From an uncultured bacterium (GTDB lineage: Bacteria > Patescibacteriota > Saccharimonadia > UBA4664 > SCTI01): a stretch of DNA of 64,000 nt. Position numbers and translations under genes: made by a program. Positions within the stretch are counted from its first letter, which is position 1. Each line of letters opens with the position of its first letter. This document shows, in pieces, positions 7,906 to 57,468 of the stretch. Below the pieces are notes generated by a model. That model saw only the letters and a program-made list of their open reading frames with translations, was not told the DNA's origin and ran no database searches. Location of the stretch: NCBI GenBank assembly GCA_963721685.1, contig CAVRJJ010000001.1, positions 132,870-196,869 of the forward strand, written 5' to 3'.

Positions 7906-8319
7906 ATGCCTACTATCAACCAGCTCATTCGTAAACCGCGCAGCGCCAAGGGCCGCAAGTCCAAGACGCCGGCGCTGGGGCGTACCCTTAACTCGCTCAA
8001 AGGCCGCAGCTATGAAAAGTCAGCACCTTTAAAGCGAGGGGTCTGTACCAAGGTTTCGACCGCTACCCCGCGTAAGCCTAACTCGGCTTTGCGTAAAGTA
8101 GCGCGTGTACGGTTAACCAACGGCATGGAAGTCACCGCCTATATTCCCGGCATCGGGCACAACCTCCAGGAGCACAGTGTTGTCCTCCTGCAAGGTCGTG
8201 GCCCGAAGGATTTAGCCAACGTTCGCTATACCATTGTGCGCGGTGCCCTTGATACTGCCGGGGTATCCAACCGCAAACAAGGACGCAGTAAATACGGCGC
8301 CAAGAAAGCTGCCAAGTAA
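7906..8319 (+). CDS. rpsL: 30S ribosomal protein S12
   Basis: 137 aa starting [12 protein letters not shown]..., typical S12. Confidence 0.97.
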
Positions 8320-10597: not shown

Positions 10598-10684
10598 TTC
10601 TTCGAGAAAATAATGGACTTATGAACAATAATAGTATAAAATAACCTTCTGCCGTATTGTCCAACAACCAAAGGAGCATGGCAG

Positions 10685-11140
10685 ATGCACATTTTGGCCG
10701 AAGTGATTGGAGCCCCCCAGCAGGATTCAAATGGACGGTGTGGGGTGGTTGCACGACTGATCCGCCACGTCGACGCGTGCAAGACCCTCGAACGACCCGA
10801 CCAATGGGTCGTCGTCGGCTGCGAGGATGGCACAGCCCTTCTCGGTGACGTCATCATGATCGAGTTTGCGAGCGGTTACACCAGCGGTCCAGTTCGTTAC
10901 ACCAAGATCGGAGAGCCGGTCGGCAAGGTGTACCTCGGCGCACTCATGCTCAACTCCGGCGTCACGTTCAAGACCCCCGCGGAATGGCTCGCCGAGCTGC
11001 ATCCCGGTATGCGGCTTCGCTACGCTGACCGCAACATGTCGGAAACGCCCTGGTTCAAGGAGCCGACCACGCGCGAGGACTTCCAACGGCGGCTGCCTGG
11101 AGGTCGCCTTACCAATCGGCCGCTTCCGCAGGCTCGCTAG
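10685..11140 (+). CDS. hypothetical protein (151 aa), foreign codon usage, no recognisable domain
   Basis: Long ORF with very high third-position GC. RBS AAAGGAG sits 8 nt upstream of the ATG. Composition is diverse, unlike the Arg/Gly/Ala-rich overlapping frames. Confidence 0.55.
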   Translation: MHILAEVIGAPQQDSNGRCGVVARLIRHVDACKTLERPDQWVVVGCEDGTALLGDVIMIEFASGYTSGPVRYTKIGEPVGKVYLGALMLNSGVTFKTPAEWLAELHPGMRLRYADRNMSETPWFKEPTTREDFQRRLPGGRLTNRPLPQAR

Positions 11141-11172
11141 CCCAATCCGCTACGCTTACCCGAAGGAGGTGG

Positions 11173-11271
11173 ATGATGGAGAAGTGGGTTGGAAATTTGA
11201 TTCTGTGTGTTTGCGCACTCGGTTTCCTGGTGGTGGTCGTGATCGGCCTCATGGTCGGTTTCGGTCTCTAG
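11173..11271 (+). CDS. small hydrophobic peptide (32 aa, MMEKWVGNLILCVCALGFLVVVVIGLMVGFGL), single predicted TM helix
   Basis: Strong SD GAAGGAGG at 11163-11170 immediately before the ATGATG start. Lies directly downstream of the 151-aa ORF. Too short for the ORF track. Confidence 0.4.
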   Translation: MMEKWVGNLILCVCALGFLVVVVIGLMVGFGL

Positions 11272-11363
11272 GCCCCGCTAGTTCGACGACGAGCCTCCTG
11301 GCGCAACAGCCAGTTGAAGTTCCGCGCTAGTGGGGCTTCGTCGTGCAAGGGTCTATATGATTT

Positions 11364-41100: not shown

Positions 41101-41175
<75 letters not shown>

Positions 41176-41178
41176 TAT

Positions 41179-41264
41179 GCCGGGTTACCCAAGTGGCCAA
41201 CGGGGGCTGACTGTAAATCAGCTGGTGTACGCCTTCGGGAGTTCGAATCTCTCACCCGGCACCA
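41179..41264 (+). tRNA. tRNA-Tyr (anticodon GTA), long variable arm
   Basis: Acceptor gccgggt/acccggc, anticodon loop CT-GTA-AA, long extra arm, CCA end. Confidence 0.85.
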
Positions 41265-41288
41265 ATAACGTTCCGACGCTTGCCGCGT

Positions 41289-41363
41289 GCCGACGTAGCT
41301 CAATGGTAGAGCAACAGTTTTGTAAACTGTAGGTTGCGGGTTCAATTCCTGTCGTCGGCTCCA
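41289..41363 (+). tRNA. tRNA-Thr (anticodon TGT)
   Basis: Acceptor gccgacg/cgtcggc, anticodon stem acagt/actgt with loop TT-TGT-AA, CCA end. Confidence 0.75.
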
Positions 41364-41402: not shown

Positions 41403-41564
41403 ATGCCAAAACGTAACCGACCCTATTTTGCGCTTGAATGCACCGAGTGCCACAACCGCAACTACACAACCAGTAAAAACCCCAAAAATACTACCGACCG
41501 CTTAGAGCTGAAGAAATTTTGCCGTCATGACGGCAAGGTAACGGTTCATCGTGAAAGCAAGTAA
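41403..41564 (+). CDS. rpmG: 50S ribosomal protein L33
   Basis: 53 aa [26 protein letters not shown]...[15 protein letters not shown], a zinc-ribbon L33. Below the ORF-track cut-off. Confidence 0.85.
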
Positions 41565-41763
41565 CGCGCCAAAGCGGCTTACCAAAAGTCGCGACCGTAT
41601 GCTTTTTGGGGTGTGCGGCGGCGTGGCCGACTATTTTAATGTGGATCCAACCATGGTTCGACTGGGTTTTGTGGCTATTTCGGTCCTTTCGGCCGCATTT
41701 CCTGGAATACTGGTGTACATCATTGGCGCCATTATCATGCCCGAGCCCAGCGAACAGCCCTAA
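41551..41763 (+). CDS. PspC-domain small membrane protein (start uncertain; GTG 41551 overlaps rpmG end)
   Basis: [33 protein letters not shown] matches the PspC N-terminal domain consensus, followed by one TM helix. Confidence 0.65.
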
Positions 41764-41792
41764 TCTAGTCTATAATAGCTCGGGTAACGCAT

Positions 41793-41868
41793 AGGGGTGT
41801 AGCTCAGCTGGTAGAGCAACGGTCTCCAAAACCGTGTGTCGTGGGTTCGAGTCCTGCCACCCCTGCCA
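41793..41868 (+). tRNA. tRNA-Trp (anticodon CCA)
   Basis: Acceptor aggggtg/cacccct, anticodon stem acggt/accgt with loop CT-CCA-AA, T-arm GGTTCGAGTCC, CCA end. Confidence 0.85.
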
Positions 41869-41969
41869 TTGCACTTATGCTTTTATTTTTACAATTTATG
41901 TGGTAAAAACAGTGAGACCAATAGGGTAGGTTAGCCCTTCAAACAAGCTGGTGATCCAAGGAGGTCACA

Positions 41970-42458
41970 ATGAGAGCGGAGCAAGCACTGCCAACAGTCA
42001 ACCTTGGGGTACTGCGTGCAGCTGAGCGCAGAGTCACCGAGACCAAGGACGCACTTGCCGAGGCCAAGCAGGCCGACAGCATTGCCGGCCAAGCTCTTGC
42101 AAATGAGCTGCACAAGTTCAACCAGAAGTGGGTCTTCCTTCGGCTGGATGACCTCCCGGGCGTCTACCTGCAAGAAGGTGGCTCATGGAGCGCCGTGACG
42201 CTTCGGGTCTGCATGGGCTTCGTGTCGAGAGTCGGTTCACACGAGAACTCACGTCCCGTTCGCACCTACGTCGAGGTGGAGAGCGACATCAACGAGACCG
42301 GGGAGAAAGCGGTCTTCCGCATCGACGTTGACACGATCCAGGGAGGCTTCATCTGCCCGGAGTACGGGTATCAGATGCTTCTGAAAGCCCTTCTCGAGGG
42401 CAAAGTGTTCGACGAGGACACGGTTGCCGAACTGGGCTTCATGGTCTTCCAGAACTAA
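41970..42458 (+). CDS. hypothetical protein (162 aa), foreign codon usage, helical N-terminus, no recognisable domain
   Basis: SD AAGGAGG lies 7 nt upstream of the ATG. High GC3 in a single frame. Confidence 0.55.
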   Translation: MRAEQALPTVNLGVLRAAERRVTETKDALAEAKQADSIAGQALANELHKFNQKWVFLRLDDLPGVYLQEGGSWSAVTLRVCMGFVSRVGSHENSRPVRTYVEVESDINETGEKAVFRIDVDTIQGGFICPEYGYQMLLKALLEGKVFDEDTVAELGFMVFQN

Positions 42459-42462
42459 GACC

Positions 42463-42660
42463 ATGCTCGGCTACTGGATAGGAATCTGCATCGCTCTGTT
42501 CATCGCTCTTCTCGGGGCAATGATGTTGTATCGCCATGGAAGGTGGACATGGGGCATGCGCTCACCAGGGAGAGAGACCTACATCTTCATTGCAGGATGC
42601 TGTGTGATCATGGGTCTAGTCGCGGCACTCGTGCTCGGCCTAGCTGCCATCAATGCATGA
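42463..42660 (+). CDS. small two-TM membrane protein (65 aa from ATG 42463; alternative TTG start 42424 overlapping upstream gene)
   Basis: MLGYWIGICIALFIALLGAMMLY...IFIAGCCVIMGLVAALVLGLAAINA has two hydrophobic helices. Starts 5 nt after the upstream stop, same foreign composition. Confidence 0.45.
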   Translation: MLGYWIGICIALFIALLGAMMLYRHGRWTWGMRSPGRETYIFIAGCCVIMGLVAALVLGLAAINA

Positions 42661-42710
42661 AGATAGAGATAAGCGGCGGGGACAGCAGATACGTTCCCGC
42701 CGTTTGGCAT

Positions 42711-42751
42711 TAGCCGCGTTACAAAAGTAGCGCGGCTACTTTTTAGTTTTT
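42711..42751 (+). terminator. rho-independent terminator (TAGCCGCG...CGCGGCTA + CTTTTTAGTTTTT), preceded by a second GC hairpin at 42674-42700
   Basis: 8-bp GC-rich stem followed by a T-tract, read directly. Confidence 0.7.
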
Positions 42752-42840
42752 AAACTGTATATTCCGTCATACGGGATGCTGGCTGAAGCTGTATAATAGT
42801 TATGACATCTATTAGAATGCCCTGCCAAAGAGATGATATT

Positions 42841-43731
42841 ATGCAAAAAATTATTCTTTATTATAAATTCGTCCCAGTGACCGATCCGCAAGCGGTGATG
42901 CTGTGGCAAAAAACGCTTTGTGAAGGCTTAGGCCTTAAAGGCAGGATTATTATTAGCGCTCACGGCATCAATGGCACCCTTGGTGGGAACCTCCAAGCCC
43001 TTAAAAAGTATGCCAAAGCCACAAAGCTGTTTCAACCCTTCAAAGGCATGATGTTTAAATGGAGCGATGGTAAGGTTGAGCATTTTCCTAAGCTGAGCGT
43101 GAAGGTGCGCGACGAGATTGTGACATTTGGCGCGGCAGATGAGATTAAGGTCGACGAGCGTGGTGTGGTAGGGGGTGGCAAGCACCTCTCCCCGGCCGCT
43201 GTCCATCGGCTCATTAAGGAGCGGGGGGATGAGGTGGTGTTCTTTGACGGACGCAATGTTCATGAAGCTGCCATTGGACGCTTTAAAGACGCTGTAATCC
43301 CTGATGTTGAGTACACCCGGGAGTTTCTGGACGAGCTTGATGATGCTAAATATGACGCGATCAAAGAAAAGCCGGTTGTAACCTACTGCACCGGAGGTAT
43401 ACGCTGCGAAGTGCTTTCCAGCCTCATGGCAAACCGCGGTTTCAAAGAGGTTTACCAAATTGAGGGCGGGATTGTTAAATATGGTGAAAAATACAAAGAC
43501 AAAGGGCTATGGGAAGGTTCGCTCCGGGTATTTGATGACCGCATGAATATGTGGTTTGGAGAAACTGAGGAGCATATTGCTAAGTGTGTAAGCTGCGGAG
43601 TAAAAACCAGTAATCAAATAAGTTGTCATGGCACTGGGTGCCGTAGGCTAATGGTTGTTTGTGAAGGGTGCAGTATAAGATCTACTCACGTATACCACGC
43701 TGAGAATTGCCGTGAAACGCAAAAGGCATAA
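42841..43731 (+). CDS. trhO: rhodanese-domain tRNA uridine(34) hydroxylase (TrhO/YceA, UPF0176)
   Basis: Rhodanese active-site loop YCTGGIRCE and a C-terminal Cys-rich tail. Start trimmed to MQKIILYY. Confidence 0.7.
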   Translation: MQKIILYYKFVPVTDPQAVMLWQKTLCEGLGLKGRIIISAHGINGTLGGNLQALKKYAKATKLFQPFKGMMFKWSDGKVEHFPKLSVKVRDEIVTFGAADEIKVDERGVVGGGKHLSPAAVHRLIKERGDEVVFFDGRNVHEAAIGRFKDAVIPDVEYTREFLDELDDAKYDAIKEKPVVTYCTGGIRCEVLSSLMANRGFKEVYQIEGGIVKYGEKYKDKGLWEGSLRVFDDRMNMWFGETEEHIAKCVSCGVKTSNQISCHGTGCRRLMVVCEGCSIRSTHVYHAENCRETQKA

Positions 43732-43749: not shown

Positions 43750-45396
43750 TTAGGCTGGACCGATTTGCACTACCTCCGCGTCAAAGTTTTTAGCAAAATA
43801 GGTATCGTGTGATACATAAAGGATGGCTCCAGAGTAATTTGCCAAAGCCTTTTCCAGCTCTTCAATCGAAGGAAGGTCCAGGTGGTTGGTGGGCTCATCT
43901 AGGATTAATAGATTTGGTATATTGCAGAGCATTTTAATGATTTGCAGGCGGGCCTTCTGGCCTCCGGATAGTTGCTTGACTGTTAATTTTCCATCTTGAA
44001 TTGGATCAAACAAATAATCTGAAAGAATTTGTCTAACGCGCTGATCATTGATAGGCACGTTTTTATCATAATAGGTTTGCCCGATCGCTTCCGATAGTGT
44101 TAATGGTAGGTACTTTTCATTTATTTCTTGTTCATATAATCCAATTTCCAACTTTGGGTTTGGCGTGATACTGCCTTCAAAAGTTTTGACTGATGAGGTG
44201 TGGGTGGTGGCCGCGTCCAGGATCGCGCGAACTAAGGTAGTTTTACCGGCGCCATTACGGCCTTTAATATGAATCTGACTCCCAGACGATAAGCTAAGGT
44301 TCAAATTTGCAAATAATGGCTGAGTGTAGCCCAGCGATAAGCCTCGAATGAGTAGTAGATCCCGGACTGCGCTCGTATTCTGATGACGGCCTATCCGAAT
44401 GTTTTTGTCCTTGTATTTATGATAGCTATCGGATGCCTTCTCCGACATTTGTGTAACGCTTTCCTGGTCTATCCAAAACGACGGCTTTTGAATTGATTGC
44501 TTCAAATCATCATATTGCCGCTGTAAGCGCTCTTCCATGATGCGAAACTTGGAGTCGCTTGACGCGTACTTTTTTGTGCGGGCTGCCAGGATTTGCTTTG
44601 TTAAATTCTGTAGCGTCCTTTGAGCGTTTTCATAATCGGTTATATGCTTAACGGTCGAGCTGCTGTTCTGGCGCAGGTAAGCGTTATAATTACCAGGAAA
44701 ACTGATGGCTTTCTTGTCTTTAATCTCAATAATACGATCAACGTAAGCTAGCACATCACGATCGTGAGTAATCACCGCGACCGCGTGCTTAGCACTGGTA
44801 AGCCACTTAATAAAGGATTCTTTGCCAACATAATCCATATGGTTAGTAGGCTCGTCCACGAGAGCTAAGTCGGTATCGGAAAGCTCAACCCGAACGAGGT
44901 CAGCTAGACGCTTTTGGCCACCCGAAAAGCTGGCAAACGGTTGCTCCGATTGTTCAGCCGAAATTTGGTAGGCTTCTAAGTTTTGTAGAATTTTGTCGTA
45001 AATATCGTAGTACCCCAGTTCGGTGAATCGCTCGACAGCATTGGTATAGTGCGTAATCTTAATAGGGTCATTACCCATGGCTGCAGGGGCATCGGTAAGA
45101 ATAGTTTGCAGGCGCCTGAAGTCCGGCAGGTTGTCCAAGATGTAGTCGATGCAGGTTTTTTCGGCTAGTGTGTGGAATTCTTGCCGCGTCGCCGCTACCC
45201 TCAGGCCTTTGCGATGCGTAATATCGCCGGAATAATACTTATCATGTCCGGCTAGAATGTTAAAAAGAGTAGTTTTGCCCACCCCATTACGGCCGATAAT
45301 AGCAACTTTCTCTTTTGACTCCAGCTTGATCCTTAGCTCTCGGAATAATTCCTTTGAACCCATGGCTTTTTTGGTTATTTCTACTCCGAGAATCAT
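43750..45396 (-). CDS. ABC-F family ATPase (tandem ABC domains, no TMD; ribosome-associated EttA/Uup-like)
   Basis: Two Walker A motifs (GRNGVGKTT, GRNGAGKTT), two LSGGQ signatures and an interdomain linker. Confidence 0.85.
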   Translation of the reverse strand: MILGVEITKKAMGSKELFRELRIKLESKEKVAIIGRNGVGKTTLFNILAGHDKYYSGDITHRKGLRVAATRQEFHTLAEKTCIDYILDNLPDFRRLQTILTDAPAAMGNDPIKITHYTNAVERFTELGYYDIYDKILQNLEAYQISAEQSEQPFASFSGGQKRLADLVRVELSDTDLALVDEPTNHMDYVGKESFIKWLTSAKHAVAVITHDRDVLAYVDRIIEIKDKKAISFPGNYNAYLRQNSSSTVKHITDYENAQRTLQNLTKQILAARTKKYASSDSKFRIMEERLQRQYDDLKQSIQKPSFWIDQESVTQMSEKASDSYHKYKDKNIRIGRHQNTSAVRDLLLIRGLSLGYTQPLFANLNLSLSSGSQIHIKGRNGAGKTTLVRAILDAATTHTSSVKTFEGSITPNPKLEIGLYEQEINEKYLPLTLSEAIGQTYYDKNVPINDQRVRQILSDYLFDPIQDGKLTVKQLSGGQKARLQIIKMLCNIPNLLILDEPTNHLDLPSIEELEKALANYSGAILYVSHDTYFAKNFDAEVVQIGPA

Positions 45397-56931: not shown

Positions 56932-57468
56932 ATGACATCGCAGGCGACTAAAAACTGGTACGTTATCCATACTTATTCCGGCTATGAAGACCGCGTAGCT
57001 GAAAACTTAAAACAGCGCATTGTTTCCCTTGGCATGGAAAACAAAATATTTGATATTATTGTCCCGAAGGAAAACCAGATTGAGATAAAAAACGGCCGAC
57101 GGCGTATAGTTGAGCGCCGGATTTTTCCAGGATACGTTTTGGTTCAAATGGATGTTACCGACGACTCTTGGTACGTAGTGCGAAACACTCCCAACGTAAC
57201 CGGTTTTGTGGGCAGCGGTACGACGCCGACCCCTATCGACCAAGCGGAAGTGCGGCATATCCAGAAGCGCATGGGTGTCGAAGAGCCCAAATATAATATC
57301 GATTTCAGCATTGGTGAAACCGTCAACATTACCGACGGACCATTTAAAGGGTTTGATGGCGCGGTCAGTGACATTGATGAAAGCAAAGGCAAGATAAAGG
57401 TCCTGGTGAACATGTTTGGCCGCGAAACTCCAGTTGAGCTTGACAGCCTTCAAGTAAAGAAACTCTAA
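56932..57468 (+). CDS. nusG: transcription termination/antitermination factor NusG
   Basis: 178 aa with NGN and KOW domains (WYVIHTYSGYE...). Confidence 0.92.
   Translation: MTSQATKNWYVIHTYSGYEDRVAENLKQRIVSLGMENKIFDIIVPKENQIEIKNGRRRIVERRIFPGYVLVQMDVTDDSWYVVRNTPNVTGFVGSGTTPTPIDQAEVRHIQKRMGVEEPKYNIDFSIGETVNITDGPFKGFDGAVSDIDESKGKIKVLVNMFGRETPVELDSLQVKKL

Follow-up and report, generated by a model that had tools for sequence, protein, structure and literature searches.

In a 64-kb window of a soil Saccharimonadia genome (TM7; candidate phyla radiation, CPR), where the window is the whole stretch of DNA that was analysed, a short segment of atypical composition lies directly behind the gene for tRNA-Trp. 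On balance, we read this segment, from 41869 to ~42820, as a horizontally acquired, non-autonomous two-gene cassette that occupies a hypervariable slot 3′ of the tRNA. An earlier note on this DNA had already suggested integration at this site, a suggestion that proved largely right, while two of its specific arguments, an 8-nt repeat and the distance to secE–nusG, turned out to be weak. New here are a 14-mer that recurs directly behind the encoded CCA in many tRNA genes and, in sister loci, miniature cassettes that are bracketed by it.

The tRNA-Trp gene (41793–41868, + strand; anticodon CCA; ARAGORN, and 65.7 bits against the Rfam tRNA model) encodes its 3′ CCA and is intact next to the insert. 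Abutting the CCA is the 14-mer TTGCACTTATGCTT (41869–41882, + strand), the left edge of the cassette, which occurs only once in the window. It is followed by an AT-rich leader (41883–41969, + strand) whose RNA fold is unremarkable (z = −0.47). A Shine–Dalgarno sequence, AAGGAGG (41958–41964, + strand), stands 5 nt before the ATG of the cargo gene, an open reading frame (ORF) of 162 aa (ORF162; 41970–42458, + strand). The ATG of a second ORF, of 65 aa (ORF65; 42463–42660, + strand), follows 4 nt past the ORF162 stop, and its product reads as two hydrophobic helices around a basic loop; judging from the sequence, the two ORFs are probably translationally coupled. Further downstream are a GC-rich hairpin with 13-nt arms (42671–42705, + strand; repeat search and RNA fold) and an intrinsic terminator (42711–42751, + strand; terminator scan and RNA fold), made of a 12-bp stem (42711–42738) and then a T-run. 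The RNA fold of positions 42661–42760 amounts to −45.2 kcal/mol (z = −6.1). On the + strand, the terminator scan gave no terminator-like site between tRNA-Trp and ORF162, and none before 42711. Every part of this arrangement that the earlier note had listed, from the Shine–Dalgarno sequence through the coupled ORF for a peptide with two transmembrane (TM) helices to the two hairpins and the terminator, lies where it had been placed, and its claim of a high-GC segment holds as well.

With regard to composition, 200-bp windows across the segment peak at 0.59–0.605 GC vs ~0.50 window-wide. ORF162 (GC 0.59) has a GC content at third codon positions (GC3) of 0.74, which is the most extreme of the window (z ~ +5 against the 66 window ORFs of at least 100 aa, whose mean is 0.523 with a standard deviation of 0.044), and ORF65 has a GC3 of 0.62–0.63. 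Both ORFs are compositionally foreign, and both the leader (GC 0.39) and the stretch past the terminator (GC 0.44) are host-like. The high GC3 of rpsL (7906–8319) was set aside, as this is a native gene and not a foreign one. Because the sequence comes from a metagenome-assembled genome (MAG), and an abrupt change in GC beside a conserved tRNA is a typical chimera point, one might suppose that a high-GC fragment of some other organism was mis-joined here during assembly. We consider this very improbable: host-like AT-rich DNA lies on both sides of the ORFs inside the insert, the downstream flank with the genes for TrhO and TypA is syntenic with relatives, and the one homologue of ORF162, on contig L029, has the same tRNA-adjacent context. 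Moreover, an independent Logan contig (ERR12037361, 998 bp) contains the gene, preceded by 130 nt and followed by 379 nt, and spans both junction regions. The inferred span of this contig is equivalent to ~41840–42837 of the window, so that it would start ~29 nt inside the 3′ end of tRNA-Trp and stop just before the TrhO ATG. Its ends would thus fall about one k-mer beyond each insert edge, which fits graph branching at the cassette boundaries but is not decisive.

The immediate relatives, found via homologues of the PspC-domain protein encoded upstream, show how variable this slot is. Three of them (L030, L031 and L032) have the left flank, rpmG–PspC(–tRNA-Trp), in common with the window at 75–86% nucleotide identity, and ORF162 and ORF65 are absent from all three. 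In L030, homology to the window ends exactly at 41868, the CCA end, and is followed by a terminator hairpin and then an unrelated surface-protein gene. In L032, homology ends at 41886: the same 18 nt follow tRNA-Trp, and behind them lies an unrelated 300-aa coiled-coil ORF; the left junction of the window is identical to L032 over 27 nt (41860–41886). In L031, the TrhO gene stands 23 nt past PspC, tRNA-Trp, ORF162 and ORF65 are all missing, and the alignment with the window breaks off at 41756 and is not taken up again before the TrhO ATG (42841), the point from which a further relative, L001, is also homologous. Since L030, L031 and L032 carry different content between tRNA-Trp and TrhO, the slot is hypervariable among close relatives, with different content in each. 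These comparisons agree with the earlier note in placing the insertion at the 3′ end of tRNA-Trp and in calling the segment foreign, and they speak against ordinary genes of the lineage, as relatives that share the flank do not carry them.

Other comparisons were of less use. Relatives found through TrhO were uninformative as a test for the empty site, as TrhO is not beside tRNA-Trp in other Saccharibacteria, and the more distant PspC homologues come from unrelated phyla. In L031 (3146–3168), the tRNA-Trp missing between PspC and TrhO may have been deleted or have moved elsewhere, or the assembly may be wrong at this point; the sequence between the two genes starts with cAGGGG, which resembles the 5′ end of the tRNA. 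In the MAG DASVGB01, the gene after tRNA-Trp (L030, 4345–5075) runs off the end of its contig, and the TrhO–TypA contig (L001, 1–314) opens with the truncated 3′ part of a gene for a dockerin-like protein. Possibly the two contigs adjoin, in which case the slot between tRNA-Trp and TrhO would hold a surface-protein gene there too.

The 14-mer at the left edge is identical behind the same tRNA-Trp in L032, and it is by no means confined to tRNA-Trp. A search of the JGI metagenomes for a tRNA T-loop followed by 12 unspecified positions, CCA and the motif with two free positions gave 15 loci, 14 of them at real tRNAs, representing seven tRNA species; the free positions of the motif were 14/16 conserved. 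Altogether, counting these 14 soil metagenome loci, L029, L032 and the window, the 14-mer stands directly behind the encoded CCA of Lys(TTT), Tyr, Ala(TGC), Glu (TTC and CTC), Gln, Arg(TCT) and Trp (the window and L032), that is, of at least eight tRNA species, and the tRNA that bears it is in every case the last of its cluster. Loci with the same tRNA align only over the tRNA and the 14-mer, and the motif is therefore conserved like the tRNA itself. The 14-mer is absent from the orthologous tRNA-Trp genes of L030 and L162, which lead directly into a terminator, and from most of the other terminal tRNAs in the examined loci; this argues against an obligatory role in tRNA processing. The 14-mer was not found in the papers searched, and a study of tRNA introns and one of horizontal gene transfer in Patescibacteria do not describe it.

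Two other views of the 14-mer were rejected. As the window and L029 share it, it could be taken for a part of the ORF162 cassette, but the metagenome scan puts it behind many tRNAs with unrelated DNA downstream. Its matches in viral contigs (IMG/VR) are all in coding sequence away from tRNAs and are chance matches. Two of the loci that bear the motif have further features of their own. In L162 (3260–3990), units of ~250 bp (…ggcctagggcg…ccgaacaaaaatcattggg…) look repeated when read by eye, and fill part of the insert between tRNA-Tyr with its 14-mer and tRNA-Thr. In L166 (6348–7352), a 334-aa reverse transcriptase-like ORF, with a YLDD motif read by eye, lies ~4.6 kb downstream of the site formed by tRNA-Glu and the 14-mer, amid small unassigned genes.

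In three sister loci, L032, L161 and L173, a second copy of the 14-mer occurs downstream, preceded without a gap by the final 10 nt of the tRNA at that locus, and the resulting direct repeats of tRNA end and trailer are 24–27 nt long. These repeats enclose 1056 bp behind tRNA-Trp in L032 (the 300-aa coiled-coil protein; one gene, bracketed by ACCCCTGCCA[T/A]TGCACTTATGCTT[T/A]TAT), 641 bp behind tRNA-Lys in L161 (a 122-aa membrane-anchored protein) and 1057 bp behind tRNA-Lys in L173 (a TM2-domain protein and a 169-aa TM protein). In all three loci the distal copy consists of (A/G)GTTCGAA, 19 nt that end in the acceptor strand, CCA and the 14-mer, with the segment from GTTCGAA to CCA 5 nt longer than that from a real T-arm to CCA. 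The two tRNA-Lys loci, L161 and L173, belong to related genomes and are 81% identical upstream of the tRNA and 90% identical over the distal 39 nt, while the cargo between these parts is unrelated. Read from the sequence, this pattern is the signature of attachment (att)-type recombination at a tRNA 3′ end with replacement of the cassette. The idea of an att-like repeat in the earlier note is thus well founded for these sister loci.

The repeat that the note itself had pointed to is another matter. The last 8 nt of tRNA-Trp, CCCTGCCA, do recur at 42820–42827 (+ strand), as it said, and this copy is a possible decayed remnant of a distal att site. The 8-mer is also found at two further places in the window, however, and its recurrence lies within chance, as considered below. 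The distance from the CCA to the 8-mer is 959 nt, similar to the 1056 and 1057 bp of L032 and L173, so that the insert, if it ends at the 8-mer, belongs to the same size class as the sister cassettes. By a hand count, the window distal site, AGTTATGAC...CCCTGCCA, matches the distal site of L032 at 17 of 30 positions, and no 14-mer follows the 8-mer in the window. The distal site of the window is at best a vestige, and the right edge of the insert falls somewhere between 42752 and 42840.

Such a worn right edge is what one would expect if a larger element, a prophage or a genomic island, had entered tRNA-Trp with its own tyrosine integrase and deletions had then left only two cargo genes and a vestigial right att site (attR). 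Decay of this kind is the commonest fate of islands borne by tRNAs, and for the window locus taken singly it is plausible, given the site at the tRNA 3′ end, the foreign composition, the lack of an integrase and a distal repeat of only 8 nt. The sister loci make it rather unlikely, as intact repeats surround equally small cassettes there (641–1057 bp, one or two genes and no integrase) at three loci; in addition, the only ORF162 homologue is again the first gene after a tRNA, and searches against PHROGs and, by tblastn, against phages gave no phage-like signal.

The cargo itself is almost without relatives. ORF162 has no match above threshold in Pfam, PHROG, PADLOC, NCBIfam or, by sequence profile, the PDB, and no homologue in IMG/VR, JGI metagenomes or, by tblastn, GenBank phages. 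A single-sequence word-index search of 5.8 billion clustered proteins returned the query only, while phmmer over 1.84 billion representatives found ORF162 and one relative, P0002 (159 aa, 30–32% identity, E = 2.7e-12); a profile built from these two sequences and run against the 5.8 billion proteins recovered the same two members and no others. In the searched protein sets the family thus has two members, and no donor, actinobacterial or other, emerged. P0002 is encoded on L029, a 652-bp contig from farmland soil, as the first gene behind tRNA-Glu(CTC). It has a GC3 of 0.79 and lies behind an AT-rich leader, and the bases past the CCA, TTGCAATCATGCTT, are nearly the same as the TTGCACTTATGCTT of the window. 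That the only homologue of ORF162 is also the first gene after a tRNA and a variant of the 14-mer, and is also of high GC3, is a point in favour of the cassette interpretation.

An AlphaFold2 model of ORF162 (pLDDT 73.8) has an N-terminal helix of 37 residues (12–48), a small beta-barrel and two C-terminal helices, and the protein is predicted to be soluble; fold searches with it were uninformative. For ORF65, PHROGs, PADLOC, NCBIfam and the PDB profile likewise had nothing above threshold, and Pfam gave only sub-threshold matches, to DUF7322 (E = 0.003) and to phage holin family 2 (Phage_holin_2, E = 0.16). A role as holin is not supported, as the latter match scores 12.6 bits vs a cut-off of 32 and no lysin gene is nearby. 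Defence and addiction modules are typical cargo of islands. On account of this and of its architecture, the pair, a cytosolic coiled-coil/beta-barrel protein and a two-TM peptide, could conceivably form an accessory module that acts at the membrane in defence or addiction, a proposal that we make with low confidence.

Several observations weigh against the cassette interpretation. The distal repeat of the window is just 8 nt long, and the empirical probability that any 8-mer comes up again in the following 1 kb is 0.026; a repeat search of the segment found no flanking direct repeat longer than this. The 42–64 kb part of the window contains no recognizable recombinase gene, no integrase was found in 11 kb of L173 or in the flanks of L166 or L163, and IMG/VR yielded no site or contig resembling the attachment site of a circular element (attP), with 0 matches to the distal-site pattern. 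That same-tRNA loci align over the tRNA and the 14-mer and no further reflects divergence and not necessarily recombination. A plain terminator often follows directly after the 14-mer, and the motif could be a native tRNA trailer rather than DNA of an element; moreover, the taxonomy of most of the motif-bearing metagenome loci is not obtainable from the cluster names. The leader of the window resembles that of L029 no more than chance allows, as 57 of 1000 shuffled sequences were at least as similar.

Taken together, some of these points fit an explanation without any dedicated mobile system, in which the 14-mer is a native trailer or processing signal of some Saccharibacterial tRNA transcripts and the slot a strain-variable intergenic hotspot. 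Ordinary indels would fill it, or else naturally transformed DNA that recombines with the conserved tRNA as one of its arms of homology; ORF162 and ORF65 would then be a recently acquired orphan operon. The 14-mer does follow at least eight tRNA species, always abutting the CCA and often ahead of a plain terminator, and between divergent loci it is no less conserved than the tRNA; the lack of a recombinase and the 8-mer being within chance are likewise as this explanation would have it. We nevertheless give it a low probability. Neither the orthologous tRNA-Trp of L030 and L162 nor most of the terminal tRNAs carry the motif, which is hence not required for maturation. Nor does a native trailer account for distal copies that carry 10 nt of acceptor end and a pseudo-T-loop at a fixed spacing of 19 nt, at two different tRNAs, and distal arms of 24–39 nt are short for RecA-dependent homologous exchange.

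If the segment is indeed a cassette, its movement and expression may be pictured as follows. Cassettes of this kind would enter, or be exchanged, by site-specific recombination between a cassette att site and a tRNA 3′ end, the att site being a pseudo-T-loop (GTTCGAA-N19-CCA) with the 14-mer behind it. The recombinase would be supplied in trans, either from elsewhere in the genome or by a helper element. In this scheme, the empty site would be tRNA-Trp-CCA joined directly to AAGAGATGATATT-ATG(TrhO), and the junction of a circular cassette would read ...GAATGCCCTGCCA joined to TTGCACTTATGC. The distal att site of the window would have decayed to 8 nt or fewer, and the cassette is therefore probably immobile, or fixed, by now. 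Expression of ORF162 and ORF65 would come from read-through from the tRNA-Trp promoter, whose TATAAT −10 box (41771–41776, + strand; read from sequence) lies 17 nt 5′ of the tRNA; the cargo transcript would be released by tRNA processing and end at the cassette terminator. We infer read-through because no terminator separates tRNA-Trp from ORF162, whereas the tRNA-Trp of L030 and L162 runs into one. The promoter was not called by a consensus scan, and no good −35 box is present; the block TAGTCTATAAT upstream of tRNA-Trp is kept in L030 and L032.

Beyond the window, we tentatively suggest that soil Saccharibacteria have an undescribed, tRNA-anchored system of cassette capture, although we would not yet bet on it. 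Its cassettes would be integrase-less, 0.6–1.1 kb long and loaded with orphan cargo, often small membrane proteins; each would start at CCA + TTGCACTTATGCTT and end in a pseudo-tRNA 3′ end (GTTCGAA-N19-acceptor-CCA), could be stacked or swapped behind different tRNAs, and would be expressed from the tRNA promoter. Functionally, such a system may resemble an integron with a tRNA 3′ end as the attachment site, and the enzyme may be a trans-acting recombinase or the route may be RNA- or CCA-primed. Like other members of the CPR, Saccharibacteria live with very small genomes in dependence on bacterial hosts, and little is understood of the ways in which they acquire and trade accessory genes. If the system is real, it would give such genomes a compact route of gene flux that needs no integrase, and would offer sites at which genetic tools could be inserted in those few strains that can be grown. 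Since a short conserved tag marks the slot, any genome can be searched for it. The cargo consists of orphan proteins, and as the family of ORF162 counts two members in billions of proteins, it suggests a gene pool barely sampled by databases. Even if no mobile system exists, the conservation of a 14-nt sequence right behind the CCA of many tRNAs calls for an explanation.

The window averages ~50% GC, and the best matches of its TrhO are Candidatus Saccharimonadia/Saccharimonadales MAGs (63–79% identity), with 79% identity to the TrhO of L001. The gene order upstream is rplM, rpsI, a pseudouridine synthase gene, holB, a TPR protein gene and then a tRNA cluster (tRNA-Thr, tRNA-Tyr and tRNA-Thr, 41101–41363), after which come rpmG and the PspC-domain protein gene (41551–41763). 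Downstream, the TrhO/UPF0176 rhodanese gene (42841–43731, + strand; Pfam UPF0176_N, Rhodanese and Rhodanese_C) is the right host flank, outside the cassette. Between it and TypA lies an ABC-F ATPase gene (43750–45396, − strand; GC 0.45), which is missing in L001, where the TrhO and TypA genes are adjacent, and so represents another indel nearby. The earlier note had also taken the distance of 14 kb to secE–nusG as a sign of insertion. It is true that nusG, at 56932, is ~14 kb downstream of tRNA-Trp (secE itself was not located), but the genes in between are core housekeeping genes (TypA, an LtaS-like sulfatase, CvpA-trypsin, MsrB, G6PD and an Asn/Lys-type tRNA synthetase) and TrhO–TypA is syntenic in L001. 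The distance is therefore no evidence of insertion, and an island of this extent was rejected. The note was right that the segment holds no integrase: its only genes are ORF162 and ORF65, and those of the 42–64 kb region are housekeeping genes.

Two further features of the window deserve mention. A second high-GC segment (10650–11340), between guaA and fusA, reaches 0.61–0.63 GC in 300-bp windows and has the same architecture, with a Shine–Dalgarno sequence, a 151-aa orphan ORF (ORF151; 10685–11140) and a single-TM peptide of ~31 aa (~11176–11271). It is probably the first cassette implied by the earlier note, which calls the one behind tRNA-Trp the second. It is not adjacent to a tRNA, is without the 14-mer and had no match in Pfam, NCBIfam or phage searches; ORF151 was considered as a relative of ORF162 and shows no similarity to it. 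Second, the TrhO proteins of Corynebacterium and of Nanopelagicales/Actinomycetota MAGs are 57–61% identical to the Saccharibacterial TrhO, nearly as close as those of other Saccharibacteria, which hints at exchange with actinobacterial hosts.

Among known systems, the closest analogy in terms of site is with the integrative elements that target tRNA genes by means of tyrosine integrases: islands, prophages, integrative and conjugative elements (ICEs) and integrative and mobilizable elements (IMEs), for example P4-like islands, pSAM2 and mycobacteriophage L5. As in these, the insertion is at the tRNA 3′ end and leaves the tRNA intact, the insert is compositionally foreign and strain-specific, and the sister loci have direct repeats with the tRNA 3′ end, of which the distal copy mimics the part from T-loop to CCA. 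Unlike these, the insert of the window is without integrase or excisionase, and the inserts here are just 0.64–1.06 kb long with one or two cargo genes. The repeat, too, is of another kind, comprising the last 10 nt of the tRNA and 14–17 nt beyond the CCA, and one post-CCA sequence is common to sites at many tRNAs; in the window, the distal repeat is essentially gone.

The cis-mobilizable elements (CIMEs) of Streptococcus thermophilus and the satellite tycheposons of Prochlorococcus are similarly flanked by att sites, devoid of recombination genes and arranged in tandem at tRNA genes, with niche or defence cargo. In terms of CIME-type att sites, the left one is intact in the window and identical to that of L032, and the right one is decayed in the window and intact in L032, L161 and L173. 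However, CIMEs and tycheposons are usually several kilobases long and can be traced to a known autonomous element with the same att site, whereas the cassettes here are gene-sized and no autonomous partner or recombinase was identified in IMG/VR or in the flanks of the motif loci.

The small recombinase-dependent modules offer a further parallel. Like the Xer dif (pdif) modules of Acinetobacter plasmids and the integrative mobile elements that exploit Xer recombination (IMEX), which are small, lack an integrase and are moved by the host recombinase at short sites, the cassettes here are compact and integrase-less. The pdif modules, however, are delimited by inverted 28-bp XerC/XerD sites with dyad symmetry, in place of direct, tRNA-anchored repeats with no clear dyad.

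Finally, integron cassettes share with those described here a length of ~1 kb, one or two genes per cassette, diverse orphan cargo, a single orientation behind a fixed anchor, a possible dependence on an upstream promoter and the presence of different cassettes in the same slot of related genomes. They differ in that IntI, attI and Pc have no counterparts beside the segment, where rpmG, PspC and tRNA-Trp stand upstream and the anchor is a tRNA gene. The junction here does not fit GTTRRRY, and the hairpins at 42671–42738 are terminator-like. In place of the imperfect palindromes of attC, the boundaries are direct repeats made of a tRNA end and the 14-mer.

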